The notes below the pieces were generated by a model, which was given only the letters and a program-made list of their open reading frames with translations, had not been told where the DNA came from and searched no databases. A DNA stretch of 64,000 nt from an uncultured virus (IMG/VR IMGVR_UViG_3300017970_000189) (lineage: Duplodnaviria > Heunggongvirae > Uroviricota > Caudoviricetes): IMG/VR virus record IMGVR_UViG_3300017970_000189. The stretch is one strand, 5' to 3'. Of this stretch, positions 18,302 through 43,772 are shown in pieces. How positions within the stretch are numbered: the stretch's first letter is position 1; every line of letters starts with the position of its first letter. Made by a program: the position numbers and the translations under genes.

Positions 18302-18643
18302 CTAGGATGACACCCTCATGGCCGGCAGGCCCACCAGCGTCGTCACGCCCGTGCGGCCCCCAAGATAGAGCACCCCGAGCAGCGCCGAGCCTACGCCACC
18401 AACCCAGCCGGCCACCTTGAGATAGTCGTTCCCTTTCTCCCTCAATCCCGTCCGGATCCCCACCCATGCTGCGGCACCAGTGATCGTCAGCACTGAGACC
18501 ATTTCGATAAACCCAGGAATCCCAGTGTATCCCGTGAACAAGAAATCCGGTGCAGGAGGAGGCACCGCAGGCGTTGATGGCGATGTTGACGCTTGAGCCA
18601 AGGCTGTATATACCGGACGATATGCCTGTTGATAAGCGATCAT
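18302..18643 (-). CDS. membrane protein, WxGxxxGL(K/R)EKG hairpin family (ALAQ)
   Basis: MIAYQQAYRP leader; AWVGIRTGLREKG. Confidence 0.75.
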   Translation of the reverse strand: MIAYQQAYRPVYTALAQASTSPSTPAVPPPAPDFLFTGYTGIPGFIEMVSVLTITGAAAWVGIRTGLREKGNDYLKVAGWVGGVGSALLGVLYLGGRTGVTTLVGLPAMRVSS

Positions 18644-18672
18644 AAAATTCCTCAAGGCATTACAGTCTTAGG

Positions 18673-28474: not shown

Positions 28475-29005
28475 CTAGAGAATCCCGTTGTCCTTGGCGA
28501 ACTGTGCCAGCGCCTTTGCTACCGACCCCTTAAGCACCGTCTGCTGGCCCAGGATCCTGAGCACCAGGCCCGGATCCTCCGCATCCTCCAGGTATTCCAA
28601 GGCCCCGAGCTCCCCCAGAATCGGCGCCACGATCGACGTCGCCCGGTCCCCCTGCTTCCGCGGCCGCCGGGTGACCTCCGGCTTCACCTTCTCGAACATC
28701 GTCACGCCCTTCCACTTCACCGGATGGCCCCTGCAGAGCCACGCGCCGGTCCCGTGGTTGACCAGGTTCTGGCAGCAGGGATTGAGCACGAGGCAGACCC
28801 CGTCCTCTTCCGTCTCGAACACATGAATGACCTGGAATTCGTTCGGCCACCCTACCGAATAGAGCCTCCTGGCCGACAAGAGCCTCGGGCCTACCTTGAT
28901 GCCCTTTTCCGTGAGGCCCACGATATCTCCGGGCTTGAAGTCCTCCAGAGACCGTTCCTTCTTCACCCCGTCCTGGACGTTCCCGTGCCCATTCGACTTG
29001 CTCAT
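28475..29005 (-). CDS. hypothetical protein
   Basis: ATGA overlap start at 29005. Confidence 0.6.
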   Translation of the reverse strand: MSKSNGHGNVQDGVKKERSLEDFKPGDIVGLTEKGIKVGPRLLSARRLYSVGWPNEFQVIHVFETEEDGVCLVLNPCCQNLVNHGTGAWLCRGHPVKWKGVTMFEKVKPEVTRRPRKQGDRATSIVAPILGELGALEYLEDAEDPGLVLRILGQQTVLKGSVAKALAQFAKDNGIL

Positions 29006-29355
29006 GAGGCCTTCTCCTCGACCTTCACGCCGTCCACCTTGAGGAGACGGCGAAGCGTCTCGTCGATCGAATCGTTCCACTTCGCCTTGCTCGCCAGATA
29101 GTCCCTAAGATATTGGCTTACCTTGACCGTCGTCATGACAGAGGATTTCCGCACATTATAGTGGTTCTTGCGGAGCTTCCCTTTGGGCGGAAACTGACCC
29201 GGCACTATCTTGAGGCCGAGGAGCCGCCGGATCGTTCGGTCGATGGGTTCGTTGAGATCCGTGCTTTCCGCAAGGAAATCGCGGACAGGCTTGGAGACTT
29301 TGATCGTTACCGTGGATTTCTGCGCCGCTGGCGCAGAACCGTTCGATTGACCCAT
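29002..29355 (-). CDS. tandem ribbon-helix-helix-like DNA-binding protein
   Basis: two copies of T(I/V)KVSxxxRD(F/Y)LA...IDxT(I/L)RRLL; first gene after a promoter. Confidence 0.6.
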   Translation of the reverse strand: MGQSNGSAPAAQKSTVTIKVSKPVRDFLAESTDLNEPIDRTIRRLLGLKIVPGQFPPKGKLRKNHYNVRKSSVMTTVKVSQYLRDYLASKAKWNDSIDETLRRLLKVDGVKVEEKAS

Positions 29356-29460: not shown

Positions 29461-30918
29461 CTACCTCAGGACCGCGTAAAGCAGTCCGAGGGCCGCCAGT
29501 CCCCCCGCCGCATAGGGAAGCACGTTCGTCGCCGTGACCGGAGTCGCTCCTCCAGCCGGCGCGGCTCCCGCGGTCCCGGTCGTCCCAGCCTGCCGCGGAG
29601 GCGGAGGCTGAGCCTGGATGATCCCGTTCGTCACCACATCCGGCGCGATCCCCGGCGAGAAATACTGCTCCGGCGGCGTGTGCGGGCACCCGGGCGGGAA
29701 ATACTGCCCATTCGAACACACGGCGTTTCCACGCGCGTCCCGCTGGCAGTTGAGGGTCGGATCAAGCGTGGGACCGCTGATCGGGCAGGGATAGCTCTGG
29801 GCTTGGCCCAGATATCCATGCGCGCCCAAGCAGCGCCTTCTCTGCCCCATCAGGTACGCATCGTAGGGAGGCTCCTTCCCTTCCTCATGAATGAAGGGAA
29901 TCGATTCTCCACCTCTCCCACTACCACCCATCACGAGCGGCACCTGCCCGAGCATTCTCCCCTGTCCAAGATCGAGCGTCGCTTCCGACGTCTCCAGGGC
30001 GTATTCCGCTTCCTCATAGGGAACCGATCTTCCCCCATGTCCGCCGTTCCCCATGACAAGCGGCACCTGCCCCATGAAGCCGCCCCAGCGGGCTTGAGCG
30101 AGCGATGACTGCTCTGCAGTCGAATGACTGCCTCCCCATTCGGCGTTGTAGTCCCCGTGGACGATGTCCCCCATTCCTCTCCGGCCCAGATCGAGCGTCG
30201 GCTCGGACGTCTCCTCGCCCACCCATTCCATGCCCAGGCCGACGAGAGGCACCTGTCCGAGCATCCCCCTGGGACCGCCGAGGTCAAGCGTCGGCTCCGA
30301 GGTCTCGTCAAACACCCACTGCTTATTGGCGAGCGGCACCTGCCGGAGCATGGGGCCCCTCAGGTTCAGGATGCCGCTCGGGAAGAGATCGAGATTATTC
30401 CTGGCGGCCGCCGCGCGCCGCCGTTTCTTCCCCTTCTGGCACTTGTCGCAGCCGAGATCCAGCGTCGCCTCGGACGTCTCGTTGGGATTCCGCTTCCTCT
30501 TTTTCTTCTGGCACTCGTCGCAGCCAAGATCCAGGGTCGCTTCCGACGTCTCCTCCGGCGGCTCGTATCCGCATCCAACGCTCGTACGACCCAAATCCAG
30601 CGTCGCTTCCGACGTCTCGTCCCACTTCTTCTTCCGCTTCTGGCACTCGTCGCACCCGAGGTCGAGCGTCGCCTCGCTCGTCTCTCCCTCAACCTCGACC
30701 GAGGCTGCACTCGGTCCAGGACAACCTATTCCACCACCCCGTCTTCCCAGATCGAGCGTAGCCTCGTAAGTCTCCTGCCGCCTCTTCTTTGCGCATTTCT
30801 CGCACACCCAGGGAGGAGATTCCTTGTTCCTCTTCTTACACCGGGTATCCCCTCCCCCACAACCCAAGTTGGGAGGCGGAGGGAGCGGCGGAAGATTGAG
30901 CACCGGGAATCTTAACAT
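29461..30918 (-). CDS. repetitive putative polyprotein (8x ET(S/Y)E(A/P)TLDLG, 4x QVPL) with C-terminal TM
   Basis: SD aggagag before ATG 30918 (MLRFPVLNL); repeats are visible in the translation. Confidence 0.8.
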   Translation of the reverse strand: MLRFPVLNLPPLPPPPNLGCGGGDTRCKKRNKESPPWVCEKCAKKRRQETYEATLDLGRRGGGIGCPGPSAASVEVEGETSEATLDLGCDECQKRKKKWDETSEATLDLGRTSVGCGYEPPEETSEATLDLGCDECQKKKRKRNPNETSEATLDLGCDKCQKGKKRRRAAAARNNLDLFPSGILNLRGPMLRQVPLANKQWVFDETSEPTLDLGGPRGMLGQVPLVGLGMEWVGEETSEPTLDLGRRGMGDIVHGDYNAEWGGSHSTAEQSSLAQARWGGFMGQVPLVMGNGGHGGRSVPYEEAEYALETSEATLDLGQGRMLGQVPLVMGGSGRGGESIPFIHEEGKEPPYDAYLMGQRRRCLGAHGYLGQAQSYPCPISGPTLDPTLNCQRDARGNAVCSNGQYFPPGCPHTPPEQYFSPGIAPDVVTNGIIQAQPPPPRQAGTTGTAGAAPAGGATPVTATNVLPYAAGGLAALGLLYAVLR

Positions 30919-30929
30919 CGCCTCTCCTT

Positions 30930-32284: not shown

Positions 32285-32781
32285 ATCTTGAAATTCAAAA
32301 CTTTCTCAAATTCGGCGTCGAGCTCAGGAGCCCATTTCCCCTTCCAACGTTCCATCACGATCTCTTTCGTCATGTTGACCCTGAATTTCAAGGCATCGAG
32401 AATGTTTTCCGCCCTCTTCAGTCTTGCCTCCCGATGCTCCGTAGGATGCTTCCCCTCTTTCAGAAGAAGCTCGATGACGATGAACTCGATATCCCTCGCT
32501 ACCCTCAGGTCCTCAATATTTTCCTCGAAAGTCTTGGGAAGCTTCGGATACCGTCCCTCAAGCCTGGGAGATCCTTCCAGCATCGCCCAAACATCATCCA
32601 AAACCCGGTCCATCATCATCCAGGCTTCTTCCTTCTCCTTCGGCCGGCCATAATAGTCCGCCCTCTCGATGATTTCAGAAAGACTGACTGCAAGGCGGCT
32701 CATCGCCAGAAGAATGTCCGGATCACCCAAGGGTTTTGAAGAGTATGCATACTCAAAAATAAACTTTTCCTCCAGGCTCAA
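32281..32781 (-). CDS. hypothetical protein
   Basis: 166 aa, protein-like composition, TTG start. Confidence 0.55.
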   Translation of the reverse strand: MSLEEKFIFEYAYSSKPLGDPDILLAMSRLAVSLSEIIERADYYGRPKEKEEAWMMMDRVLDDVWAMLEGSPRLEGRYPKLPKTFEENIEDLRVARDIEFIVIELLLKEGKHPTEHREARLKRAENILDALKFRVNMTKEIVMERWKGKWAPELDAEFEKVLNFKI

Positions 32782-33061
32782 ACCCCCATCTCCTCATCTC
32801 CCCCGCCTTCGATTCCAGCGCCATGAACGTCCGCCGGGGAGCCTCCATCGTCTCGAGCTCCGGATGAATCGTCCGCTTCGCGAGAACCGTGAAATCCTCC
32901 GCAATGAACGCAAGATCGAAATCTTCCCTCACGTTCCGCGAATGGAACAGCGCCCCCTCGTTGATGAGGGGGAAAACAAACAGCGTGCCCGGCTCGATGT
33001 ACTGCCGATACTGCAGGCCCATGGCCTGTCCTTCCGGCGTGCCGAAGATGATCAGACGCAT
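32753..33061 (-). CDS. DUF192-like protein
   Basis: MGLQYR..LFVFP..FHSRNV..DLAFI..ALE..G. Confidence 0.65.
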   Translation of the reverse strand: MRLIIFGTPEGQAMGLQYRQYIEPGTLFVFPLINEGALFHSRNVREDFDLAFIAEDFTVLAKRTIHPELETMEAPRRTFMALESKAGEMRRWGFEPGGKVYF

Positions 33062-33092: not shown

Positions 33093-33169
33093 TGGTACCC
33101 CCGGTAGGACTCGAACCTACATTTCCCACGTTCGTAGCGTGGTCCGTTATCCAATTACGGGACGGGGGC
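33093..33169 (-). tRNA. tRNA-Arg(ACG)
   Basis: cloverleaf, loop CT-ACG-AA, encoded CCA. Confidence 0.9.
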
Positions 33170-33763
33170 CCCTTTGTCTTGCTGAGGTTCTCCTGAATGC
33201 TGGCGCTCCAAATGGCGAGCGAGAATCTTCCTGGCTTGTTTCTTGAATAGCTGGAATATCAAGATCCTTCGGATTCCCGTCTTCTGCGTGGTCGCCGTCT
33301 CAAGCGTCTGGCAGAAAACGATCAGCTCCTCGTAGGTCCGGTCCGATTTCAGCCCATTGCAGGTGTAACAAGCAGCCACCAGATTCTGATCATCGCTCTT
33401 TCCTCCCTTGGCACGGGGGTAGAAGTGATCGATCGTCTGAGCCACTTCTCCGCAAAAATAGCACGGATCCTTCAGGATCCTGGCTCTCCGGCTATCCCCT
33501 ACCTGAGCTCCCTTGTACCGTTTCTTCTCACGGACTTCCGCGGCTGATCTCCCGGTCGCCTTGACGAACAGCGCCCCGTTCATGTCCCGAGTCCACCCGC
33601 AAAGGCAATCCCACGCCTGACACCCTCCATGGCTGGCGTGAATGATCCTCCCATGCGAGCATTCCGGACACCGATTGACCTCTCGCTTCTTCACCGGCAA
33701 CCCATTCCCTTCCGCATCCGGCCATAACGGATGAAACATGGCTTCCTCCAACGGCTCTCTCAA
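33155..33763 (-). CDS. HNH endonuclease with N-terminal Zn-binding motif
   Basis: CYFCG..TIDHFYPRAKGG..NLVAACYTCN. Confidence 0.8.
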   Translation of the reverse strand: MREPLEEAMFHPLWPDAEGNGLPVKKREVNRCPECSHGRIIHASHGGCQAWDCLCGWTRDMNGALFVKATGRSAAEVREKKRYKGAQVGDSRRARILKDPCYFCGEVAQTIDHFYPRAKGGKSDDQNLVAACYTCNGLKSDRTYEELIVFCQTLETATTQKTGIRRILIFQLFKKQARKILARHLERQHSGEPQQDKGAPVP

Positions 33764-33785
33764 TCAGCCGGTTACAATATTAGCG

Positions 33786-34268
33786 ATGTGGAGAGATCCC
33801 GATGCCCGTGTCGGACAGGCCTACGGGTACGAGCGCGGCAAAAACTGGAACCGCGCCCGGCGCCTTCACCTACGCGAACAACCTTCCTGCGTCGCCTGCA
33901 AGAAACAATACCGCGGGTTCCTGGGCTGGTTCGTCCGGCTCTGGACCGGAACCGTCGTCCACCAGATCATCCCCCTCCACATCTGCTTCGCCCTCGATCG
34001 CCCCGACCTCGAGACCGACAGCCGCAACCTCGTCACGCTCTGCGCCGGCCACCACTTCCTCATCGGCCACCTCGGACATTTTCGATGCTTCAACCTTTAC
34101 GTCAAAGCCACCGTCATCCGCTGTTTCGGAAGAACCCCTCAGGAATTCCTGGAAAGCCCAGACTTCGAATACTTCGCCAGCAAAGGCTACAAGCCTTTCG
34201 ATGAATGGACCGGCGAAGAAATGGCCGAGTTCCGCCAGAAACTCGACGAAAAGTTCCCACCGAAATGA
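33786..34268 (+). CDS. phage-type HNH-like protein
   Basis: WNRARR..CVACK..VHQIIP..NLVTLCAGHH; one of the rare + strand genes. Confidence 0.7.
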   Translation: MWRDPDARVGQAYGYERGKNWNRARRLHLREQPSCVACKKQYRGFLGWFVRLWTGTVVHQIIPLHICFALDRPDLETDSRNLVTLCAGHHFLIGHLGHFRCFNLYVKATVIRCFGRTPQEFLESPDFEYFASKGYKPFDEWTGEEMAEFRQKLDEKFPPK

Positions 34269-34269
34269 T

Positions 34270-34347
34270 TGGTACCCCCAGAAGGATTCGAACCTTCACA
34301 ATTCCTCCTTCGGAGGGAGGTGACCTATCCAATTGGTCAATGGGGGC
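34270..34347 (-). tRNA. tRNA-Arg(CCG)
   Basis: loop CT-CCG-AA, CCA end. Confidence 0.88.
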
Positions 34348-34626
34348 CTATTCCATAACCCCATGCTCCAGGTAATCCACGATCGTGTCGCCGTGGCAGG
34401 CCAGAGGATGGCAGTAACACAGCAAAACTTTCCCCTTCAACCCCTCCACCTTCTTCTTGAATTCCGGATCCATCCGGAGACGCGCAAAAAAATACGACTG
34501 AAACTTCCGAATCACCGCCGCGCGATCCCCGTCCTCCCCGATCGCGTACGGATTCCCGAAAGGACTCGGGCGGCCAATATAAACCCCCTTTACCCCAGGG
34601 GTCCTCATATTGACCACCCGGGTCAG
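34348..34626 (-). CDS. DUF4326-family protein
   Basis: VYIGRPSPFGNPY..LKGKVLLCYCHPLACHGD; start uncertain. Confidence 0.8.
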   Translation of the reverse strand: MTRVVNMRTPGVKGVYIGRPSPFGNPYAIGEDGDRAAVIRKFQSYFFARLRMDPEFKKKVEGLKGKVLLCYCHPLACHGDTIVDYLEHGVME

Positions 34627-35069
34627 GCCGTTTGATTTCTCGTCTCTTCCCACTGGATGAAGCACCGATCGCAAAGAACCTTGAAGACCCCGATCAAAAA
34701 TCTCTTCCTCCCCTCCCCTCCGCACTGCTCGCAGATCTCCGCCGATTTAACCCTCGCCCCATCAATCAAAGAATAAAAATTCGTCGATCTCACCCTGTGG
34801 TCCTCGACTACCTTGGCCGGCGCGCTCATCGTGCTCTTCATCGAAATTTCCGCATGCACCACAAGCGACCCCATCTTCTCCTTCACCTGGAGAATCTGCC
34901 AGCATTCCCTCCCCGTCAGGATCTCGTCGTATCCCTCCCACACCTTGTCGAGCGCCGCACACAACTTCACCACCAAAGGCTGCCAGCCTGGCCCGCAATC
35001 CACCCTCACCAAGCAGCCCTTCTTGAACCTCTCCTTCACGCTCGCCCAAATATCCTGCTGCTCTGCCAT
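34623..35069 (-). CDS. phage hypothetical protein
   Basis: CGPGW..QVKEKMG..CEQCG..VLCDRC. Confidence 0.7.
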   Translation of the reverse strand: MAEQQDIWASVKERFKKGCLVRVDCGPGWQPLVVKLCAALDKVWEGYDEILTGRECWQILQVKEKMGSLVVHAEISMKSTMSAPAKVVEDHRVRSTNFYSLIDGARVKSAEICEQCGGEGRKRFLIGVFKVLCDRCFIQWEETRNQTA

Positions 35070-35134
35070 CAGGAGACAATTTTACCCACCCTCCAAACCA
35101 GACCTCAAGATCCTTCTCATCCTCTTCATTTTTT

Positions 35135-35212
35135 TGGTACCCCGGGCGTGACTCGAACACGCATTATGTCCGTTTAGGAAACGGATGCCCTATCCAGTTA
35201 GGCGACCGGGGC
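35135..35212 (-). tRNA. tRNA-Arg(CCT)
   Basis: loop TT-CCT-AA, CCA end. Confidence 0.88.
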
Positions 35213-35224
35213 GTGTAGAAAATC

Positions 35225-35830
35225 TTATCTTGCAGGAGCTTCGCCCGGTGCCGGCGAGATTTCAACCATCTCCATCGCCTCCCGGCCGCGCTGTCCAACA
35301 ACGTTCCAGTTGACGTTCCCAAAGAATGCACCGATATAGCCAGATTTGTCGAGGCCATATTCGCGCATATAGGCATGCTCGTAGCAATCCAGCACCAAGA
35401 GCGGCCAGGATCCCGCTACGTATCCCTGTCCGTGCTCCTTCATCGTGAACAGGAATTCCTGCCCTCTCCAAAGGTCCATCGCGAGCACCACCCAGCCGGT
35501 CGATCCGAGCGCCAGCACCGACATCCGATCGAGCAGCTCATCCGTATCCTTCTCAAACAGATGCTCGGGATTTCCCATCCCTCCCTTGGTCAATTGCTCG
35601 AAGTAGAGCTCGTGAAGATAGATCGCGTTCCTCAAGAACCCCTCTTCCGACATCAACCGCTGGTACTCGAAGCGATCGACTTTCTTCGGAAGATCTGCGA
35701 TCTTCTTCTCGATCGCGTTGAAGCGATCAAGATATCCCAGGTAAAGTTTGAAGTGATCCGACAAGAGCTTCTTCGAAAGCCCCGGAAGCTCTTTGTACTC
35801 AAGATCGATCGGTTTCCAGACTTCGCTCAC
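35225..35830 (-). CDS. Fe/Mn superoxide dismutase-family protein
   Basis: HFKLYLGY, LHELYF, PLLVLDCYEHAY, NVNW. Confidence 0.85.
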   Translation of the reverse strand: MSEVWKPIDLEYKELPGLSKKLLSDHFKLYLGYLDRFNAIEKKIADLPKKVDRFEYQRLMSEEGFLRNAIYLHELYFEQLTKGGMGNPEHLFEKDTDELLDRMSVLALGSTGWVVLAMDLWRGQEFLFTMKEHGQGYVAGSWPLLVLDCYEHAYMREYGLDKSGYIGAFFGNVNWNVVGQRGREAMEMVEISPAPGEAPAR

Positions 35831-36636
35831 CCACCCCTCCCGAAGATCGCAAAGGCCGTCAGCCCCGCCGCCATGATCCCTCCCCCAGCCACCAGCGTCA
35901 TGTTGCTGGTCTGGGCCGGTGCGGCCGCTCCGGGAGCCGGCGTAACCGCGGCTGGCGTTCCTGCCGGAGCCGGCGTCCCCTGCGAACCAATAATATCCAG
36001 AATATTCCCTGCCTGAGTCACATCCGCCGAAAAAGCCGGATCGCTCGTCGCAAAGTCCTGCGCGGCTTCATCCATGTCCTTCGCCGCTTCCTTCGCGTTT
36101 TGAACTTGCACGTAAGCCTGCGTCGCCGACTGGACCGCAGAAATAATCCCCATGATCGCCGCCGGCGCCGCTATCCCCACGATCACCGCCCCCACCGCCT
36201 CCGCGATCGCATCCCTCATGGCCACCCGCCTTCTGCGCTCCGCCCTCTTCTTGGCGTCCGCCTCGATTTCGTCTGACCAGGCATTGTAGTTCGCCAATAC
36301 CTGGAGCGTAATCCAGACGGTGATCGTACCCGTATCGAGCGGCTGGCCGATCGTCGCCAGAGTCCTTAAATCCGGAGTCAGATACTTCTTGAAGAAGATG
36401 ACCGCATCGGAGAGCTCAAAGGGAGCTGGGAATGGAAATGCAAACAGCGTCTTCCAAATCAACTGCGCATTCGATTGGATCAGCGCATTCTGCGCATCCG
36501 TGTTGCTCGAACTTACGCCCCACTGATCCGGAGTCGGCATGTCACAGTCCGCTGCAACCACGCATGGAGAAACGGCCCCCAGGAAAGGACTGGCTCCGAA
36601 GATATGCCTGCCGAGTCCCACCACTCTCATCCCCAA
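35827..36636 (-). CDS. membrane protein with PFLG motif and C-terminal TM
   Basis: internal and C-terminal hydrophobic helices, PA linker. Confidence 0.7.
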   Translation of the reverse strand: MGMRVVGLGRHIFGASPFLGAVSPCVVAADCDMPTPDQWGVSSSNTDAQNALIQSNAQLIWKTLFAFPFPAPFELSDAVIFFKKYLTPDLRTLATIGQPLDTGTITVWITLQVLANYNAWSDEIEADAKKRAERRRRVAMRDAIAEAVGAVIVGIAAPAAIMGIISAVQSATQAYVQVQNAKEAAKDMDEAAQDFATSDPAFSADVTQAGNILDIIGSQGTPAPAGTPAAVTPAPGAAAPAQTSNMTLVAGGGIMAAGLTAFAIFGRGG

Positions 36637-36669
36637 CAGTATATCCGGAGGCGGCTTCGAGTTCGATAA

Positions 36670-36982
36670 TTCTGGAGCGTCCGCTGACCTCGGTTGAGCC
36701 CCTCAACTCACGCACGGGGGACTTTCGCCGGTACTTCCAAGTCCGCACTCGCTTTATGGTCCCTCTCGGCCCCGGAGGGCCGGTGCGATTGACACAAAGA
36801 TCGGAGGCTCTTCGCCTCCCCGGCCCGGCCATGATTTGCCTCACAGGCGCGTGGTCGGATAACGGACCCTGAGGCCCTGCCACTCCTGCGCTCTCCGAGG
36901 CGGATCGAGAGCTGAGGCATTACTGAGATCCTTTTGCGCCGGTCTCGCATGGATTTTCACCGACAGACCGGACGCTCCAGAA
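36670..36982 (-). ncRNA. candidate novel ~310-nt structured RNA
   Basis: perfect 14-bp terminal inverted repeat TTCTGGAGCGTCCG enclosing several hairpins; directly downstream of tRNA-Pro. Confidence 0.6.
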
Positions 36983-36986
36983 GTTT

Positions 36987-37063
36987 TGGTCGGGGTGACT
37001 GGATTTGAACCAGCGATCTCCTGCTCCCAGGGCAGGCGCGATTCCAAACTTCGCTACACCCCG
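36987..37063 (-). tRNA. tRNA-Pro(TGG)
   Basis: loop CC-TGG-GA (C33), CCA end. Confidence 0.88.
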
Positions 37064-37071
37064 AAATTATT

Positions 37072-37147
37072 TGGTAGGCCGGGTGGGAGTCGAACCCATC
37101 GTCGAGCGCTTATAAAGCGCCTACTCTGACCGTTGAGCTACCGGCCC
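37072..37147 (-). tRNA. tRNA-Ile(TAT)
   Basis: loop TT-TAT-AA, A73, CCA end. Confidence 0.85.
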
Positions 37148-37192
37148 GAATTACGGATGAGGCTTTGGCGTCCTCTCTTGACCGGAACATGG

Positions 37193-37528
37193 CTAGCCCA
37201 ACTGCCTGAGATCCTCTTCCAAGATCTCGATGACTCGGAGAAGGCTCTCTTTTGCTTCACTTTCTGCGGATCCCATCTTATGCCGACCGTTTCCTGCTGA
37301 AATTCTGAGAGACATTGCCAGCGTCTCCATGTTTGCATGAAGCTCCGCAAGCTTCTGCTGGTCATGACGCGAAAGCTTAAGCACTTCTTCTCCATGAAGC
37401 AGATAAACCACCTTGATCATCGCCAAAGTCTGACCGTAATGATAAGCGGCTTCATAGAGCAAGCCATTCCTGGCATAGCGCTTCCCTGCCACGAAGGTTT
37501 GAAGAATCAGCCGGATGACCGTTTGCAT
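37193..37528 (-). CDS. hypothetical protein
   Basis: 111 aa helical ORF between tRNAs. Confidence 0.55.
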   Translation of the reverse strand: MQTVIRLILQTFVAGKRYARNGLLYEAAYHYGQTLAMIKVVYLLHGEEVLKLSRHDQQKLAELHANMETLAMSLRISAGNGRHKMGSAESEAKESLLRVIEILEEDLRQLG

Positions 37529-37571
37529 ATGACTATATTACCAACCAATGCCGTACAAACAGTTATAACTT

Positions 37572-37647
37572 TGGTCCGGCTACCCGGACTCGAACCGGGA
37601 TGATCCTGTACCCGAAACAGGCGGGTTACCAATTACCCTATAGCCGG
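37572..37647 (-). tRNA. tRNA-Pro(CGG)
   Basis: loop TT-CGG-GT, CCA end. Confidence 0.88.
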
Positions 37648-37704
37648 GGAAATGAAAAATTACCGACTTCCGATAACCCGATAATTTTTTGAAATGAACC
37701 CTTG

Positions 37705-37995
37705 CTATATCTGCGCCGATCTGAAGCCGATAAGATCCAGTATCATAAAGATCAGCCCAATCCCCGCCATGCCCCCGCCTGCGTGGACCAGAAGATCCCC
37801 TACAGGCTTCCTTCTGTAAGGATAGGCTCCCACCCCGATCGCCACCCCGGACCCGATAATGATCAAATTCACTCCCCAGGATGGGATCTTCACGCTTTCC
37901 GGAGGCTTCGGTGGAGTCGGCGTCAATTGCCCGATCATCCGAATTGGCAACGGCCGTGCGACTGGAATCAGATTTGCCGGTGTGTACCGAAGCAT
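37705..37995 (-). CDS. small two-TM protein (MIGQ motif)
   Basis: Pro linker and two hydrophobic helices. Confidence 0.7.
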   Translation of the reverse strand: MLRYTPANLIPVARPLPIRMIGQLTPTPPKPPESVKIPSWGVNLIIIGSGVAIGVGAYPYRRKPVGDLLVHAGGGMAGIGLIFMILDLIGFRSAQI

Positions 37996-38018
37996 CTTTC
38001 AAAGTATAGCAAAAAGAT

Positions 38019-38105
38019 TGGTGCAGCCGAGAGGATTCGAACCTCCACGCCTTTCAGCATCCGCCCCTCAAACGGACGTGTCTACCTGAGTTCCACCACG
38101 GCTGC
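38019..38105 (-). tRNA. tRNA-Leu(GAG)
   Basis: long V arm, loop TT-GAG-GG. Confidence 0.85.
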
Positions 38106-38112
38106 GAATTTT

Positions 38113-38186
38113 TGGTACCCCGTGAGGGACTTGCACCCCCATCTTCCGGGTGTAAGCCGGAAATTCTTCTATTGAAATAACGGGGC
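38113..38186 (-). tRNA. tRNA-Val(TAC)
   Basis: loop CT-TAC-AC; T-loop TGCAAGT. Confidence 0.82.
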
Positions 38187-38248
38187 TCGGGGGCACCCAA
38201 AAACGGGGCCCAAATCGTAGAAAAAAGCCGCCCTAGGGCGGACAAATC

Positions 38249-38322
38249 TGGTACCCACGGAGGGAATCGAACCCCCGAATGCTCCATGTGAGGGAGCCGG
38301 TTTACCACTAACCTACGCGGGT
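38249..38322 (-). tRNA. tRNA-Val(CAC)
   Basis: loop CT-CAC-AT. Confidence 0.85.
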
Positions 38323-38832
38323 GAATCTTTTCTTCTCCGAGCAATCCGGGCACTTCGGATACCTATCCCCATACTTCTTCGAGATCTCCTTCCAGCTCGA
38401 CTCCCCAGGCTCCACCATGACGTGCCCCACCAGATATCCACATAGGCACGTCACCTTCATCCGCCGCGGATCCCGACGCCTCCCGCTCTTCCGGTCGCTC
38501 CCATGGAATTCTCTCTCCACCTCCAGCTTTTGCTCATCCTTGTACTCGTTAATCCGATCTCCCTCCCACCCATTGCAGGACCTCTGGCGATGGTTCATGG
38601 ATGGGGTATCCTTGAACCTTGCCATCCCTTTGAAGGAAGGATCGTAGAAGCACGCGCAGAGCGTCGTCTCCGCCCAGATCGAGCAGTCGGCCTTCTGCTT
38701 GGAGTACCACGGATGGACCCAGACGTAATTCCAGTTCCAGCCGTGCGTCGCCCAGTCGTGCTTCAAGCGCCGCATCCAGACGCACCGCGACCGCCAACGC
38801 CGTTGTGAACGGCGCATGCTCTTTTGGAGCAT
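38308..38832 (-). CDS. basic Cys/Trp-rich hypothetical protein
   Basis: 174 aa; C-terminal CLCG/CPDC; preceded by an attenuator-like leader. Confidence 0.6.
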   Translation of the reverse strand: MLQKSMRRSQRRWRSRCVWMRRLKHDWATHGWNWNYVWVHPWYSKQKADCSIWAETTLCACFYDPSFKGMARFKDTPSMNHRQRSCNGWEGDRINEYKDEQKLEVEREFHGSDRKSGRRRDPRRMKVTCLCGYLVGHVMVEPGESSWKEISKKYGDRYPKCPDCSEKKRFTRVG

Positions 38833-38930
38833 AAAACCTGTCCCTTCCGGACAGGCGGCCTGATAGCCTATTCCAGCAGGCGCCTGTCCTAAGCCATGAG
38901 GCTTGTAGACAGGTTCGAGAAGTGATTCAT
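38833..38930 (-). promoter_or_regulatory. leader peptide (MNHFSNLSTSLMA) with 1-2-3-4 attenuator-like element
   Basis: alternating CCTGTC/GACAGG segments at 38906-15, 38881-89, 38849-57 and 38837-43. Confidence 0.55.
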
Positions 38931-38935
38931 CGTTT

Positions 38936-39163
38936 TCATCCGATCTTCTTCAAGACGTCGAGCACTATCATACGCTCCTCGCCCGGCGTCTGTGGCGGAT
39001 CCTTGTGAAATTCCCTGGAAACCTCCTGGACGATCTCGACGGCCTTCTGGTGTTCAGCCTTCGATCCGCCCTGGATGTGGTAGTCCTTCCCCTTCGAGAC
39101 CCTGACCTTGTCTTCCGGATGAGTCCGAACCGCACCGAGAAAGAAGTACGACTTTGCCATCAA
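38936..39163 (-). CDS. hypothetical protein
   Basis: 75 aa, coupled to the upstream lipoprotein gene. Confidence 0.6.
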   Translation of the reverse strand: MMAKSYFFLGAVRTHPEDKVRVSKGKDYHIQGGSKAEHQKAVEIVQEVSREFHKDPPQTPGEERMIVLDVLKKIG

Positions 39164-39741
39164 GGCTTTTTCTCGGATGTCGGCGGCGTCGATGACGCGG
39201 GCGCTGGAGCCGCGGGCGCTGGAGTTGCAGGCGCCGGAGTCGGCGTCACTGGAGCCGGGCTGGGCAACCCTTCCGCCTGCTCGATCCCTTGAGCCAGACC
39301 CGTAAAGAACCCTACAGCCGCTCCCGCCGCCCGTGAACTTAGTTTGTCAGCCGGATTGGCGGGGAGAGGCAAACTGATGATCACCCCCTGGACCACGATC
39401 TCATATTCACTCAGCGTCGTGTTCTGGACCAGCGTGGAAACCTGCTGGATGAGTCCCGAGAGAACCGCCGAGGTCGGCGCGCCAGACAGCGCCGGGATGA
39501 CCGTATTCCGGAGGAAGCCGTCGATCTGGGTCGCATCGCCCTTGATCCGGGCCGCATCCTTCGGATACTTGGCCTGGGCCGCCGTAATGCCATACTTCGC
39601 GGCATAAAGCGCGCCTTCCTGAAGGTAAGCCGCAAGCTGAGCATCGCTCAGGCTGTCGAGCTTCGTCTCGAGCGCCGTGATGGCCTTGCAGCCGCTGGTG
39701 GAGAGGACAATCCCAAGAATACCGACCGCGAGAAGTCTCAT
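39160..39741 (-). CDS. putative lipoprotein
   Basis: MRLLAVGILGIVLSTSG-C lipobox-like; SD ggagg. Confidence 0.75.
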   Translation of the reverse strand: MRLLAVGILGIVLSTSGCKAITALETKLDSLSDAQLAAYLQEGALYAAKYGITAAQAKYPKDAARIKGDATQIDGFLRNTVIPALSGAPTSAVLSGLIQQVSTLVQNTTLSEYEIVVQGVIISLPLPANPADKLSSRAAGAAVGFFTGLAQGIEQAEGLPSPAPVTPTPAPATPAPAAPAPASSTPPTSEKKP

Positions 39742-39787
39742 ATTTCCTCCTATCTCTCCACCTAGTCTACTTCCAGACCTTCAAGAG

Positions 39788-39916
39788 TCAATGATCCTTT
39801 TTCCTCTTCCTGAACACCAGCATCCCGATCACGAAGCCCACCGCCAGGGCTCCAACCACCGAGATCACCGGATAGGCCGCCACCCAGACACTCAGGATGT
39901 CATGGAGCTTCCCCAT
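39788..39916 (-). CDS. 42-aa tail-anchored membrane peptide (not in ORF track)
   Basis: SD ggagg; MGKLHDILSVWVAAYPVISVVGALAVGFVIGMLVFRKRKKDH. Confidence 0.6.
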   Translation of the reverse strand: MGKLHDILSVWVAAYPVISVVGALAVGFVIGMLVFRKRKKDH

Positions 39917-39948
39917 AAGCCCTCCTTGATACCCTGATTATACAAGAT

Positions 39949-40031
39949 TGGTGGGCATGGAGGGATTCGAACCCTCACCCTTTCGGAGCCGGTTCTGAAC
40001 CGACAGCGTATACCAGTTCCGCCACATGCCC
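39949..40031 (-). tRNA. tRNA-Leu(CAG)
   Basis: loop TT-CAG-AA, V arm. Confidence 0.85.
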
Positions 40032-40038
40032 GAATTTT

Positions 40039-40115
40039 TGGTAGGCGTGGTGAGAGTCGAACTCACAAACATCCGATCTTAAATCGGGTCGCTATGCCAA
40101 TTCGCGTACACGCCC
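40039..40115 (-). tRNA. tRNA-Leu(TAA), short variable loop
   Basis: loop TT-TAA-GA; V loop only TGTTT. Confidence 0.82.
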
Positions 40116-40121
40116 GAATTA

Positions 40122-40206
40122 TGGTGGGCTCGGGGAGACTCGAACTCCCACGCCTTTCGGCGCCAGATCCTAAATCTGGTGCGTCTACCAATTCCGCCAC
40201 GAGCCC
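40122..40206 (-). tRNA. tRNA-Leu(TAG)
   Basis: loop TT-TAG-GA. Confidence 0.9.
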
Positions 40207-40291
40207 TGGTACCCGGGAGAGGACTCGAACCTCCACGCCTTTCAGCGTCCGCTCTTGAGGCGGATGTGTCTACCGGTTCCACCACCCGGGC
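40207..40291 (-). tRNA. tRNA-Leu(CAA)
   Basis: loop CT-CAA-GA; abuts the neighbouring tRNA with no spacer. Confidence 0.9.
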
Positions 40292-40307
40292 CTATCATAA
40301 TGAATTC

Positions 40308-40383
40308 TGGTGCGCTCGGAGGGGCTCGAACCCTCACATCCCCGGGTAAGAACCGGGTACGCTGCCACTCGCGTCCCGAGCGC
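40308..40383 (-). tRNA. tRNA-Lys(CTT)
   Basis: loop TT-CTT-AC. Confidence 0.85.
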
Positions 40384-40400
40384 ATCATTGTCAAATTTTT

Positions 40401-40477
40401 TGGTGCGCCCGGTCGGGCTCGAACCGACACTAATCCTGATTAAAAGTCAGGTGTCCTACCATTTGGACGACGAGCGC
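40401..40477 (-). tRNA. tRNA-Lys(TTT)
   Basis: loop CT-TTT-AA. Confidence 0.88.
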
Positions 40478-40506
40478 ACATCAGGGATCCCGTTTGCCAT
40501 CGCGTT

Positions 40507-40695
40507 TCATACGCGGCCTCCTTTCTCTTCATGGAATTCGTGACAGTTCCCACAGTACCGCTGACGGACGTCTTCCGGATGATGGCTCGTCATCCCACAA
40601 GCCCTGCATTTGATCGCCTTCCCCCCGTCGAGGATGACGAACCGTAACTCGACGGGGGGAGAAGCGGTCTTCTTCTTGAACCGCCACCATCCCAT
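40507..40695 (-). CDS. small Zn-finger protein
   Basis: CRACG..YCGNCHEFH. Confidence 0.65.
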   Translation of the reverse strand: MGWWRFKKKTASPPVELRFVILDGGKAIKCRACGMTSHHPEDVRQRYCGNCHEFHEEKGGRV

Positions 40696-42015
40696 CTAGT
40701 CGTTGCCTTTGATACAGGCGACGGGACGGAGACGGTGAGCCACTCTTGCCAGCTTGGCCTGCTCCAAGGTCGCCAGGACCGCATCCAGGCTCTTGTAGCA
40801 GGGATCCGATTCGTCGATCGGGGTATTCCTCGTGTTGATCAGGATGTCGGCTTCGGCCATCTCCCGGTCGATCTTTTCCTGATCGAGCGTCCGAGCGGCC
40901 GCCTTCCGGCCCAGGACCCGGCCCGACCCATGATTCACCGAATAGCACGACCGTTCAGCCTGCGGAAGGGCGTAGAGAATCGCGGATCCCTTCTTCATCG
41001 AGCCAGGGATCAGGATCGGATGGCCATCAGCCTCCCACGGAGTTCCGGTCAGCATCTTGTGGCCGGCCGGGAATGCCCGGGTCGATCCTTTCCGGTGGAC
41101 GAGGAATCCGTCCTCTTCCTGGATCAGGTTGTGCGAGATCTCGTAGAAGATCTTCGCTTCTCCTCCAAAAACGTCCATCAGGGCGTCGCAGACCGCTTGG
41201 CCAACCAGGATCCGGTTGGCGATCGCGAAGTTGGCGGCCTGGTTGTGGAGCGACCAGTAGCGCCGGCCGATCTCCGAATCCCGGTAGAACCAGCCCATCT
41301 CCCGATCCTTCCCCTGAAGGCCCAGTAGGCTCGCTCCTTCCTCGAAGTAGTGGTCGGCGATCCCGTGGCCATAACCCCTGGACCCCGTGTGGATCATGAC
41401 CCAGACCTTCCCGGTCGTGTCTTCCACCTGCATCTCGCAGAAATGGTTTCCCCCTCCGAGCGATCCGAGCTGATTCTTGCCCCTTGCCGCCTTGTCCGGC
41501 AGCTTGATCTCCTGATCGACCGGGATGTACTCCCGTTCCGTATAGCCCGGCAGGCGACCCATCGCCTTGGCGCCAAACTTCACGATCTCGTCGAAGGAGA
41601 CCTTCGGCTTGATCTTGCCACACTCGCCTTTTCCGATCCCGATCAGACCCGTCACCTTGTTAATCCAGGCCCGGCGTTTCACCTTGTCAGCCACCTGGTC
41701 GGCCGTCAAGGTCGTCTCGAGCTGGACCATCCCGCAGCCGATGTCATACCCGGCCGCCGTGGGCAGGATCGTCGTGTCGGTCACGATGACGACACCAATC
41801 GGCACCCCATAGCCCTGGTGCGTGTCGGGCATCACCGCCACTTTGACGACGCCCGGAAAGTTCGCCGCAGCCGCCATCTGCTCCCAGGCCGACTCCTCGC
41901 TCGCCTCGTACAGTTCCTTCGAGAGGAAGACATCGACCGGAACCTTGAGATCCGGTGCCTTCGGAAGGATGTAGTGGCCAGGACCTGAGTATTCGGCGCG
42001 TTTCTTGAATGACAT
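40696..42015 (-). CDS. rtcB: RNA ligase RtcB
   Basis: MPDTHQGYG, GYDIGCG, GGGNHF, HTGSRG, SHN, HRKG, HGSGR; start reassigned to MSFKK. Confidence 0.95.
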   Translation of the reverse strand: MSFKKRAEYSGPGHYILPKAPDLKVPVDVFLSKELYEASEESAWEQMAAAANFPGVVKVAVMPDTHQGYGVPIGVVIVTDTTILPTAAGYDIGCGMVQLETTLTADQVADKVKRRAWINKVTGLIGIGKGECGKIKPKVSFDEIVKFGAKAMGRLPGYTEREYIPVDQEIKLPDKAARGKNQLGSLGGGNHFCEMQVEDTTGKVWVMIHTGSRGYGHGIADHYFEEGASLLGLQGKDREMGWFYRDSEIGRRYWSLHNQAANFAIANRILVGQAVCDALMDVFGGEAKIFYEISHNLIQEEDGFLVHRKGSTRAFPAGHKMLTGTPWEADGHPILIPGSMKKGSAILYALPQAERSCYSVNHGSGRVLGRKAAARTLDQEKIDREMAEADILINTRNTPIDESDPCYKSLDAVLATLEQAKLARVAHRLRPVACIKGND

Positions 42016-42062
42016 GATTTTCTCCCTCGCTCGGCAAGAGTGTACCACGCTTACCTTGAAAC

Positions 42063-42136
42063 TGGCAGCCCGCACCGGACTCGCACCGGTATCTTCGGTT
42101 TGAAGGACCGAGATTCTACTCTTAAACTAGCGGGCC
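42063..42136 (-). tRNA. tRNA-Glu(TTC)
   Basis: loop CC-TTC-AA; T-loop TGCGAGT. Confidence 0.8.
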
Positions 42137-42139
42137 AGA

Positions 42140-42445
42140 TGGACGCGCGCTATAAGCCGGGTCCTGTTCCCATTTTCGGGGCGGAAGTCATCAATCTAGA
42201 CCGTGCCTTGCGACACAGCTCAAGCAGCCTACCCGCACGCGATCACGGTCGAGCCAACCCGCGTGCCTATTTGGCTTTGCTCCAGGTGGGGGTTGCCGCG
42301 TTTCACCCCTATCTCTTTCGAGATAGGACTCGTCTCTGTGGCCCTGTCCATCGGCTTGCGCCGTGCGGCCGTTAGCCGCCACCTTGCTCTATGGAGCCCG
42401 GACTTTCCTCCGACCTTGCGGCCGGCGACTTCCCGCTGCGCATCC
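42140..42445 (-). ncRNA. rnpB: RNase P RNA (bacterial A-type, compact)
   Basis: GAGGAAAGTCCGGGCT ... GGGTGAAACG ... ACAGGACCCGGCTTA; terminal P1 pairing. Confidence 0.93.
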
Positions 42446-42451
42446 AAATTT

Positions 42452-42527
42452 TGGCACCTCGCACGAGAGTCGAACTCGTATTTCCGCCTTGAGAGGGCAG
42501 CGTCCTAAGCCGTTAGACGAGCGAGGC
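42452..42527 (-). tRNA. tRNA-Glu(CTC)
   Basis: loop CT-CTC-AA. Confidence 0.88.
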
Positions 42528-42542
42528 TTATTGAAAGATAGG

Positions 42543-42782
42543 TTAGAGCCACCACCAACGGTTCCAAAAAAGCTCCCGTCGCTTCGGGTCAAAGGTGATG
42601 AGCCCAACGAATCCGATGACTAGAACTGAGGCCCCCGTAATCCATATCCAGGAAGGAATAGTATCTATCTTCGCTGGTGGCGGAACAGGGACTACCGGAG
42701 GGACTGCCTGAGCGATTTTAGGCGCTGGTCTTTCCAAACCTATAAGCTTCACCTGACCAAGAAAAGGCTGAAAAGGAATCAT
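42543..42782 (-). CDS. small TM protein (FLGQ motif)
   Basis: Pro linker and TM. Confidence 0.65.
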   Translation of the reverse strand: MIPFQPFLGQVKLIGLERPAPKIAQAVPPVVPVPPPAKIDTIPSWIWITGASVLVIGFVGLITFDPKRRELFWNRWWWL

Positions 42783-42788
42783 GACTTC

Positions 42789-43772
42789 TTATCTCTTTCT
42801 TCCCATTACCGGTGCGGCCGGCCTGTTCCATAGTCCGGCAGCCACCGAGACAACCCCTCCTACCACAAGCACTCCAGCTCCAATCATAAACCATTTGATG
42901 AGATTTATATTCGGCGTCCAGATCTTTCCGATTTGAGTGATGGCATCGGTGAATTCTTTTGCCTTGGAAGAATTTGTTGTCTTCAAGGCCTCAAGGACAT
43001 TCCCAAAAGCGGAATCCCCGAAGACGCTCTCCACCGAATCACCGATAGCAGTCGCTGATGGATAGACCGCAAGATTCCCATTCTGAAGGATCCCCACTAG
43101 CCACAAGCCCACCTGATCAATAAAGACCATGTAGCTCGAGAGCTGAGAACCTGGATTGGCTACCACGGAAGCCACTTCCTTAAGGTCCGAAAGAATGCTC
43201 GTATTGCAAAGGTTCCCGAAGTCCAGAATCTCCGTCATCCCGGCCTGGATGGGCCCCAGTGTCCCGGTCTGCACACAGTCGAGCGTATTATCCGGCCGTA
43301 GGAAAGGACTCATCCCCCGTACTTCGGTCGTGAACCTCTTGGGGAGGATATTAATCTCCATCGCATTCAACAGGTTCCGGATGCTCGACATGAAGTTCGG
43401 GAGCGAAAGCTGTTCGCTGAGCGCGATGAGTCCATTTGATGCGCTGATGAACCCAGCCCGGTTCGAATTCGCATTGATCACGGCCAGCGTCCTAGGGTCC
43501 GTCACGAACTCCCGAAGCTCATAAGCCGAATAGGCGATCTTTTCCCGAATACTCCAGAGGAGGTTCGCCACCTTGAAGGCCGCAACGGCGCTATCCTGCG
43601 CCCATGGCATATTCTCCCAATCGGCCTGCTTGACCACGCTCGGGATATCTCCGATCGTCCGAGTCATCGCATCGATCTGGGGAAGTGCCTGACCCAGGCT
43701 TTGGGATCGATTCCAACCTGAGGTCCAGAGTGGGAGAAGATTCTCGACCCGCATACTACTCTTTGACGGCAT
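42789..43772 (-). CDS. membrane protein (SLGQ; C-terminal VMGRKR), paralog of 43756..44802
   Basis: WAQDSAVAAFKVANL, EINILP; C-terminal TM. Confidence 0.75.
   Translation of the reverse strand: MPSKSSMRVENLLPLWTSGWNRSQSLGQALPQIDAMTRTIGDIPSVVKQADWENMPWAQDSAVAAFKVANLLWSIREKIAYSAYELREFVTDPRTLAVINANSNRAGFISASNGLIALSEQLSLPNFMSSIRNLLNAMEINILPKRFTTEVRGMSPFLRPDNTLDCVQTGTLGPIQAGMTEILDFGNLCNTSILSDLKEVASVVANPGSQLSSYMVFIDQVGLWLVGILQNGNLAVYPSATAIGDSVESVFGDSAFGNVLEALKTTNSSKAKEFTDAITQIGKIWTPNINLIKWFMIGAGVLVVGGVVSVAAGLWNRPAAPVMGRKR

Follow-up and report, generated by a model that had tools for sequence, protein, structure and literature searches.

Gene P0001 and its decapeptide array

Our study examined a 64,000-nucleotide stretch of DNA from an uncultured virus of the Caudoviricetes (IMG/VR record IMGVR_UViG_3300017970_000189), hereafter the window, and focused upon one gene on its minus strand, P0001 (29461..30918; stop codon 29461-29463), whose product of 485 residues was read from a list of open reading frames (ORFs) and their translations. 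An earlier, sequence-only reading had described this product as a precursor-like polyprotein with eight copies of one acidic decapeptide. The ORF list gave a longer frame reaching 31089, but a near-identical contig from another peat sample carries a 1-nt deletion at 30933, which makes translation of this extension unlikely. A GGAG at 30924-30927 lies at a distance of 5 nt upstream of the ATG at 30918, and its spacing, together with the deletion, supports this ATG as the start and 485 residues as the length of the product.

Scanning the window in six frames with the expression E[TS].E.[TS]LDLG returned exactly eight matches, all in the single minus-strand frame of P0001, where the copies read E-T-(S/Y)-E-(A/P)-T-L-D-L-G. 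Bare LDLG occurred only four further times in the other frames of the window, and none of these lay within a likely gene. Copy 1 (ETYEATLDLG, residues 49-58) is encoded at 30745..30774 and copy 2 (ETSEATLDLG, residues 79-88) at 30655..30684, the latter running directly into CDECQKRKKK (30625-30654). Copy 3 (101-110; 30589..30618) is followed by RTSVGC, copy 4 (123-132; 30523..30552) by CDECQKKKRKR (30490-30522) and copy 5 (147-156; 30451..30480) by CDKCQKGKKRRR (30415-30450), and it is copies 2, 4 and 5 that are adjoined by the three CxxC motifs with their Lys/Arg runs. Copies 6 (205-214; 30277..30306) and 7 (236-245; 30184..30213) both read ETSEPTLDLG, with copy 6 leading through GPRG into MLGQVPL, and copy 8 (309-318; 29965..29994) is the only one with Gln as the next residue (QGR-MLGQVPL). 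The same 30-nt units were found at the DNA level as repeat families D1-D4, of which D2 comprises copies 2 and 4. The mean pairwise nucleotide identity of these units was 0.80, and the codon-pair differences among the copies were 129 synonymous against 19 non-synonymous, which indicates that the repeat is old, is not the product of a recent DNA duplication and is under selection at the level of the peptide. The decapeptide was found in no other ORF of the window, in no IMG/VR contig (0 matches to a degenerate DNA pattern) and in no unrelated short protein, and a literature search for TLDLG, ATLDLG and SEATLDL matched unrelated human peptides only.

Ahead of the array, P0001 opens with the tag MLRFPVLNLPPLPPPPNLG (residues 1-19; 30862..30918), which is conserved in homologs and which, by inspection rather than by use of a signal-peptide predictor, contains eight prolines and no hydrophobic signal-peptide core. 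It is followed by a segment with Cys20, Cys27, Cys39 and Cys42 (CGGGDTRC...WVCEKC; 30793..30861), which is zinc-ribbon-like by its cysteine spacing alone; Cys39 and Cys42 are invariant in our first family alignment (A1), and no Pfam or NCBIfam domain model matched the segment at threshold. Within and beyond the array lie four (M/F)(L/M)xQVPL units, MLRQVPL at residues 191-197 (30328..30348), MLGQVPL at 220 (30244-30261), FMGQVPL at 282 (30058-30075) and MLGQVPL at 323 (29935-29952), which DNA repeat finding also detected (families D3 and D4). Two Gly/Arg boxes, GNGGHGGRSVPY (residues 290-301; 30016..30051) and GGSGRGGESIPF (29893-29928), are kept in homologs as GNGGRGGRSVPY; we take them to be 'RGG-like', which is a label and not a tested family. 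YLGQ (369-372; 29803..29814), in which Gly371 and Gln372 are invariant in A1, marks the boundary between the variable N-terminal part and a conserved C-terminal module. This module consists of the family-defining Cys/Pro-rich beta domain (approximately residues 375-444; 29587..29796), with Cys378, Cys391, Cys401 and Cys411, and a hydrophobic helix, LPYAAGGLAALGLLYAVLR (467-484; 29467..29520), which is the presumed tail anchor, is conserved as LP[LY]AAGGIAxxGLLYAI[LF]R and has only Arg485 beyond it.

Much of what the sequence-only reading had described was borne out by these results, namely the eight copies, the three CxxC segments with basic runs, the four QVPL units, the Cys-rich domain after YLGQ and the layout of one conserved 10-mer followed by variable segments. 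Its transmembrane anchor stands as a modelled hydrophobic C-terminal helix, the insertion of which into a membrane is presumed.

Structural modelling was carried out with AlphaFold, using a shallow family alignment of 15 rows for the full-length protein. The predicted local distance difference test score (pLDDT) was below 50 for 371 of the 485 residues, and the confident parts were limited to a helix at 158-174, the Cys domain and the C-terminal helix. Residues 17-156 were given no confident fold, and the model contained no solenoid, the structure that the sequence-only reading had named as the outcome that would speak against it. Modelled separately, the Cys domain reached a pLDDT of 80-91, and the YLGQ boundary sits in a low-confidence stretch just ahead of it. 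Neither model matched a known fold; the best Z was 2.7 for the full-length model and 2.8 for the Cys domain (to chemokine-sized beta units, which is not meaningful), with a best BFVD E value of 0.75 for the latter. The helix at 467-484 of 485 was present in both models and, with an N-terminus that lacks a signal peptide, has the arrangement of a tail-anchored protein. Cysteine spacing fits a zinc ribbon for the pairing of Cys133/136 with Cys157/160 and of Cys20/27 with Cys39/42, although model matches were below threshold only (TIGR02605 at E 0.15, in P0008; DUF7836 at E 0.005, with 17 bits against a cut-off of 26.7).

The protein family and conservation of the decapeptide

P0001 had no match in Pfam, PHROG or NCBIfam. 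A word-indexed search of 5.8 billion clusters identified 14 homologs of 290-490 residues, an exhaustive profile search of 1.84 billion representatives gave 35 proteins at E ≤0.001, and a search among shorter proteins, with residues 45-160 of the repeat region as the query, added 7 extra members of the same family. All are unnamed metagenome proteins. No relatives were present in 185,579 prokaryote genomes, which therefore gave no hint of a host and no prophage copy; there was no family match among the cultured-phage records of INPHARED, IMG/VR held no members save one distant record of 236 kb, and the ESM Atlas offered no usable neighbour. No other member of this small, previously undescribed family of huge-phage proteins is as expanded as P0001; the family is new and very narrow, and its invariant decapeptide array is remarkable.

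The family shares a common plan. Members begin with a tag, either M-x-R-(F/Y)-P-V-L-N-L or x-P-F-L-G-Q-V-P-L, in which the Q position can hold Cys (NLGC compared with RLGQ), and this is followed by a variable middle ranging from nothing to approximately 350 residues. The C-terminal half comprises an invariant G-Q after Leu, Met or Ile, a Cys/Pro-rich domain of approximately 70 residues (consensus DPTLNCQRDARGNAVCSNGxYFPPGCPHTPPEQYFSPGIAPD), an Ala/Gly/Pro/Thr linker and a hydrophobic helix that ends in a single Arg or Lys. In a second alignment of 33 sequences (A2) the Gly of the boundary was invariant and the Gln nearly so, whereas the part ahead of the boundary is hypervariable and measures from 14 to 371 residues. 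Minimal members of 145-165 residues consist of tag or leader, LGQ, Cys domain and anchor helix, which suggests that the repeat region is an add-on to a membrane-anchored core.

The repeat number was compared between homologs, as the sequence-only reading had proposed, and was found to range from 0 to 8. A loose regular expression found 44 copies in 14 proteins, a lower bound given that the expression missed a few degenerate copies, and their numbers in P0001 to P0014 were 8, 4, 3, 5, 5, 3, 4, 3, 2, 2, 2, 1, 1 and 1; 32 further relatives had none. All ten positions are nearly invariant across the 44 copies, in proteins that are only 38-48 % identical overall. The expression fixed only D8, and T2 and E4 were nonetheless found in 44 of 44 copies although other residues were allowed there. 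Three hydroxyl residues (T2, S3 and T6) and three carboxylates (E1, E4 and D8) are conserved. The preceding residue is mostly Asp, Glu or Asn, and the residue after the final Gly is Arg in 18 copies, Cys in 16, Gly in 4, Met and Asp in 2 each, and Gln and His in 1 each. Copy 5 is present in every homolog that bears the motif and is the sole copy in the single-copy members, which always read DETSEATLDLGC(D/K)KC followed by a basic run, as do all 7 extra members; in A1, E147, L155, G156, C157, K159 and C160 are invariant. Since the single-copy members all keep the context of copy 5, one ancestral copy ahead of a CxxC knuckle was later multiplied. More distant members have only an acidic stretch ahead of [LM]GCxxC.

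Several likenesses of the motif were considered and dropped. The beta-clamp-binding motif (QLxLF), the FtsZ C-terminal peptide, the TonB box, double-glycine leaders and the lipobox do not fit in their key residues. C-terminal signals of the sortase or exosortase type had no NCBIfam match even at E ≤10, and self-cleavage of the Ntn or Hint type at G|C was set aside because Gln, Arg and Gly also follow the Gly of the motif.

The putative [LM]GQ leader and the genomic setting

A second short signal extends beyond the family. Within the first 75 residues, [LM]GQ occurred in 16 of 82 ORFs (a hand-listed set from the minus strand), whereas 2000 shuffles gave 2.5 ± 1.5 and never as many as 16. Two of the 16 carriers are probably due to chance, these being the initial MGQ of the ORF at 29002-29355 and residue 73 of a phosphoesterase. 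The enrichment resides in unannotated proteins, with 17 occurrences against 3.7 expected in 55 such proteins and 1 against 2.3 in 26 with Pfam annotation. At least 14 small proteins, mostly with a hydrophobic helix and Ala/Pro-rich linkers, carry at their N-terminus a leader that closes with [LM]GQ, examples being PPVLGQAQAP, ETALGQAPP, HFLGQVPIVP, SIRLGQLDF, GPMMGQDDG and HPYLGQAQQ. Their genes cluster at 53-64 kb (53701-63957) and are also found at 1159-1788, 3297-3737 and 42789-44802. [LMF]G[QR]VP[LI], the form of the QVPL unit that P0001 repeats, was seen near the N-termini of the ORFs at 3297-3737 and 59206-59445 and inside that at 62594-63505, and the M-R-Y-P-V-L-N-L opening of P0001 recurs in the ORF that starts with GTG at 63505 and in leaders of the 236-kb relative. 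An N-terminal [LM]GQ is thus carried by several unrelated proteins of the window and likewise by proteins of this relative, in which the same leaders appear (e.g. MRFFPVVNLSPRLGQV and MRVRYLVSNVRAPRLGQ). In P0001 itself NLGC occupies residues 17-20 and the first [LM]GQ is at residue 220; in its family the [LM]GQ boundary lies outside the modelled fold, and the entire repeat region of P0001 is upstream of YLGQ. We conclude from these sequence patterns that, in numerous proteins of these phages, a leader-like N-terminal part terminates in [LM]GQ, and in the proteins of the window this signal looks like a shared targeting or processing tag. The window-wide LG|Q motif of the sequence-only reading is therefore real, but its link with the LG of the decapeptide is weak, as the motif is followed by Gln in just 1 of 44 copies.

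Several further proteins touch upon this theme. The ORF at 62594-63505 (minus strand) has a GTG start overlapping with the upstream gene's stop (GTGA) and opens with MRYPVLNL as P0001 does. It contains long poly-Pro stretches as well as WLGRVPLVG, and its C-terminal helix is hydrophobic; the longer start listed for it, 63766, is probably wrong. Paralogous proteins of approximately 110-150 residues are encoded on the minus strand at 18302-18655, 59455-59826, 60816-61142 and 61201-61653 and, in the 236-kb relative, at L001:10382-10708. They share a leader of the form Y-Q-x-x-Y-x-P-x-Y...(L/W)(G/A/S)Q-A, an Ala/Pro stretch and a Gly-rich hydrophobic C-terminal part, and one of them directly follows a short-form Cys-domain gene in that relative. 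A 192-residue protein of G001 (L019, 138-716, plus strand) opens with four [LM]GCGC units (MGCGCDQLGCGCSEMGCGCDSLGCGC), continues with LLGQ and a hydrophobic segment, and extends the [LM]G-(C/Q) theme to a further huge phage. The 154-residue protein encoded at 58716-59180 (minus strand), situated among the leader-tagged genes, has a run of approximately 30 Gly (GGGGGGGGGGGGGGHGGGGGHGG...) and a tail rich in Trp, Tyr and Pro.

The cluster of P0001 was located on a contig of 426,845 bases, and the source is a huge phage of approximately 427 kb, of which the gene-content searches reported here cover the 64-kb window. The sequence of the window was present in four DNA runs of peat metagenomes, with no RNA run listed, and the contigs from the sequencing runs showed no joints and no copy-number variants. 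The following features are all on the minus strand. A block of approximately 20 kb for glycan synthesis (5734-26027) encodes at least 13 proteins with glycosyltransferase domains, together with RmlA- and RmlB-like enzymes, an epimerase and two CmcI-like methyltransferases; it includes a GT2 domain fused to TPR repeats (6822-7916) and a low-GC island (0.40-0.50) at approximately 16-22 kb. One candidate for a glycan acceptor is the set of Thr/Ser/Ala/Pro-rich linkers in the anchored proteins. Forty tRNA genes for most amino acids lie at 33093-52021, interspersed with several HNH endonuclease genes and with those of an RtcB RNA ligase (40696-42075), of a DnaJ-like protein (45312-45992) and of a calcineurin-like phosphoesterase (47106-47849). 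PHROGs named almost nothing else. Pfam scans of 97 ORFs and PHROG scans detected neither a PatA/PatG-type protease nor one of any other kind in the window, the Pfam scans found no ATP-grasp or other enzyme for RiPPs (post-translationally modified peptides of ribosomal origin) among these ORFs, no ATP-grasp was present among the window-matching neighbours on the short contigs of relatives, and no head genes were found in the window.

Beside P0001 lies a gene for a 117-residue protein (29002-29355, minus strand) with two halves that each resemble a ribbon-helix-helix (TVTIKVSKPVRDFL...IDRTIRRLL and TVKVSQYLRDYL...IDETLRRLL). A promoter-like site lies at 29429-29400, and the protein matches SeqA_N below threshold only. 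This neighbour follows the family gene in four lineages (L002, L007, L009-11 and L012). In L003 and L004, the 335 and 428 nt located downstream of this gene do not contain it. On the other side, a DUF192 protein (32753-33061, minus strand) is also encoded upstream of the family gene in L003, L004 and L011. In the 236-kb IMG/VR record, L001:10727-11602 (plus strand) encodes a 291-residue protein with DUF5678, a C-terminal hydrophobic helix and the retropepsin-like motif IDTGAS (PF13975 at E 5.8e-6, scoring 27.3 bits where the cut-off is 28.2). Its gene is placed two genes downstream of the short-form family member, and no counterpart could be found in the window. Comparison of 138 ORFs of this relative (G001) with PHROGs assigned names only to genes for replication, RNA repair and methylases, along with a weak terminase-like ORF. 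PF03420, PF04586, PF05065 and PF07068 were unmatched in it, and neither an S77 or S78 protease nor a recognisable capsid gene was found there.

Possible functions of the repeat region

Tentatively, and accepting that it may well prove wrong, we favour the reading of P0001 as a tail-anchored, largely disordered scaffold for multivalent docking. P0001 would be held by its tail at what we presume to be the cytoplasmic face of the host membrane, and its unfolded middle would present a string of short modules, namely CxxC knuckles with Lys/Arg runs, Gly/Arg boxes, MLGQVPL units and decapeptides. The CxxC/Lys-Arg and Gly/Arg modules would probably bind zinc and nucleic acid. The decapeptide would most likely be a short linear recognition motif on which one partner docks, either a binding protein or a modifying enzyme, and multiplication of a single copy ahead of the CDKC knuckle up to eight-fold would have raised avidity, with the copy number tuned by selection. 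[LM]GQ would be a separate feature, probably a common leader, targeting or processing mark of small anchored proteins; if it is cut, the whole 371-residue repeat region would amount to a giant leader. Docking is favoured by the near-invariance of the motif between free flanks, its variable copy number, the predicted disorder with no solenoid, the minimal members that lack repeats and the non-basic charge of fragments cut at LG; a general protease site, moreover, would be expected on other substrates too. Tail-anchored proteins have a single C-terminal hydrophobic helix and no N-terminal signal peptide, and multivalent scaffolds of short linear motifs have a long disordered region with reiterated motifs whose number varies between orthologs. 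P0001 shares these features by analogy, with a presumed topology, although it has no sequence relation to any described member of either class.

Several observations weigh against a docking scaffold. No partner was found for the decapeptide, and the predicted disorder is weak evidence because the alignment behind the AlphaFold model is shallow. The anchor is short and moderately hydrophobic, and was not flagged by a Kyte-Doolittle scan at a threshold of 1.7. Furthermore, the Cys domain looks like an extracytoplasmic, disulfide-type domain, which would conflict with a cytoplasmic orientation and is at odds with the lack of an export signal. Part of the role of the motif may be structural, given that copy 5 adjoins the CxxC knuckle in every motif-bearing member. 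Finally, both the motif and the N-terminal tag (NLG|C) end in L-G, and [LM]G stands before Gln or Cys at numerous conserved positions of the family and of its paralogs, a pattern that would be predicted if [LM]G were a determinant of cleavage.

That last pattern leads to the most serious rival, in which P0001 is a processed precursor. Here a phage or host protease would cut at [LM]-G sites (the eight TLDLG|x, NLG|C, MLG|QVPL, and YLG|Q or after its Gln), so that the 371-residue N-terminal part would yield peptides and a small anchored Cys domain would be left behind. Taken as a whole we regard this as unlikely, but cleavage may apply above all at the [LM]GQ boundary, which fits the boundary of a leader or propeptide. 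The enrichment of [LM]GQ near N-termini, both across the 82 ORFs and in the unannotated proteins, speaks for it, as do the recurrence of the same leaders in the 236-kb relative, the invariant G-Q placed exactly between variable and conserved parts in a stretch modelled as unfolded, and the exchange of Gln for Cys in the family tag. In SPN3US, N-terminal propeptides of head proteins, 20-254 residues long, are described as receiving several cuts at one motif (PMC10052503). The system of SPN3US gp245 (A-x-E), like that of the T4 capsid targeting sequence (CTS) and gp21, resembles the present one in that a short N-terminal signal with a fixed tripeptide occurs on many unrelated proteins and in that the part before the signal varies in length and can hold further copies of it. 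It differs in the tripeptide itself, A-x-E rather than [LM]GQ, and in the hydrophobic anchors that most of the tagged proteins have here, which would be odd for capsid cargo; moreover, the decapeptide is not on the other tagged proteins, and neither a protease nor a head gene was found in the window. Cleavage in T4 follows the rule L/I-x-E. A candidate enzyme is the retropepsin-like, membrane-anchored protein two genes from the short-form homolog in L001, although its PF13975 match is below the cut-off, and because neither an S77 or S78 protease nor a recognisable capsid gene was found in the relative the idea could not be tied to an enzyme. The decapeptide itself fits cleavage poorly, as ten invariant positions exceed what a protease site needs, the other putative substrates share none of them, and Gln follows so rarely.

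A stronger version of the same idea is more doubtful still. In this version these phages would tag a whole set of small anchored proteins, at least 14 of them in the window alone, with the [LM]-G-Q leader, and in P0001 the leader would have grown into a 371-residue multi-site precursor that a phage protease with a novel [LM]-G specificity cuts at up to approximately 14 places. Zinc-binding, acidic-tailed peptides would be released into the cell or the capsid, and the Cys-rich domain would stay on the membrane; if true, this would be a counterpart in a bacterial virus of the polyprotein and core-peptide logic of eukaryotic viruses. Cutting after each LG would give fragments with predicted net charges of +5, -3, -1, -4, +1, +5, -4, -6 and +1. 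The five small ones (-3, -1, -4, +1 and -4) are not basic because the acidic motif stays on each, and with at most two Cys apiece they have too few for a zinc site of their own. The DNA-condensing peptides that the sequence-only reading had envisaged are not supported by these charges. In adenoviruses, adenain releases basic DNA-binding peptides from core protein precursors at Gly-containing consensus sites; by comparison, the fragments of P0001 would be net neutral or acidic, Leu rather than Gly stands at P2, and no clan-CE protease was found in the window.

The decapeptide might instead be a sequon for modification, O-glycosylated or phosphorylated (for example by the glycosyltransferase cluster) or cross-linked through esters or amides by an ATP-grasp enzyme as in graspetides, which we consider improbable. 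The conserved hydroxyl and carboxylate residues would suit such chemistry, and the same strand holds the glycosyltransferase-domain proteins, the RmlA/RmlB-type enzymes and the two methyltransferases of the glycan block. TPR-bearing GT2 enzymes that act on proteins exist, as exemplified by GmaR of Listeria. However, the cluster lies 3.5-24 kb downstream with approximately nine unrelated ORFs in between, and the hydrophobic L-D-L-G half of the motif is conserved as strongly as its Thr/Ser half. Multi-core graspetide precursors are described as repeating a conserved Thr/Glu/Asp-rich core with variable linkers (PMC8939145), and the repeated Thr/Ser and Asp/Glu of P0001 correspond to this in composition only. 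Graspetide ligases normally adjoin their precursors, whereas neither the window nor the short contigs of the relatives yielded an ATP-grasp, and P0001 is far larger, phage-encoded, and equipped with a folded domain and a membrane anchor. By analogy, graspetides would nevertheless be closer to P0001 among RiPPs than cyanobactins are.

Equally improbable, in our assessment, is a chain of folded tandem zinc modules, in which the decapeptide would form a strand leading into each Cys knuckle and the N-terminal half would be a series of Zn(Cys/His)4 ribbons. The motif abuts CxxC in every single-copy member, in homologs one copy is often succeeded by H-x3-C and the next by CxxC (for example LDLGRDGHSVGC...LDLGCDKC), the 12 Cys in residues 20-160 could form three zinc sites, and the weak TIGR02605 match of P0008 is to a zinc ribbon. 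Against this, copies 6-8 have no nearby Cys and two copies are followed by a single Cys and no His, AlphaFold offered no confident fold for this half, and structural strands are seldom invariant at all ten positions.

A cyanobactin-style RiPP precursor with eight cassettes of recognition site and core, as the sequence-only reading had suggested, can be dismissed as highly improbable, for the likeness is one of formal layout only (an acidic conserved motif ahead of variable short segments), no protease, heterocyclase or other RiPP enzyme was found in the 64 kb, no Pfam or NCBIfam precursor model matched, and a 485-residue protein with a folded domain, an anchor and 'cores' of 12-63 residues lacks a C-terminal recognition sequence. 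Cyanobactin clusters have two tandem proteases and a short precursor in which each core has a recognition sequence on either side (PMC2854353). P0001 is like precursors such as PatE in its variable copy number and in having an acidic recognition-like motif beside variable segments, but it departs from them in the two-protease cluster (within the window), the short precursor and the second flanking sequence.

In summary, a ten-residue peptide that stays invariant through up to eight-fold reiteration must have a specific reader, be it a binding protein, a modifying enzyme or a protease. Discovery of this reader would give the whole family a function, in a setting where huge phages carry hundreds of genes without one. 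If the motifs are cut, both the protease specificity and the kind of multi-peptide phage precursor would be new; if they are docking sites, they would clearly exemplify, in a bacterial virus, a short linear motif whose expansion is driven by avidity. Together, the decapeptide and the [LM]GQ leader could provide insight into how proteins are addressed, processed or organised by these phages at the host membrane.

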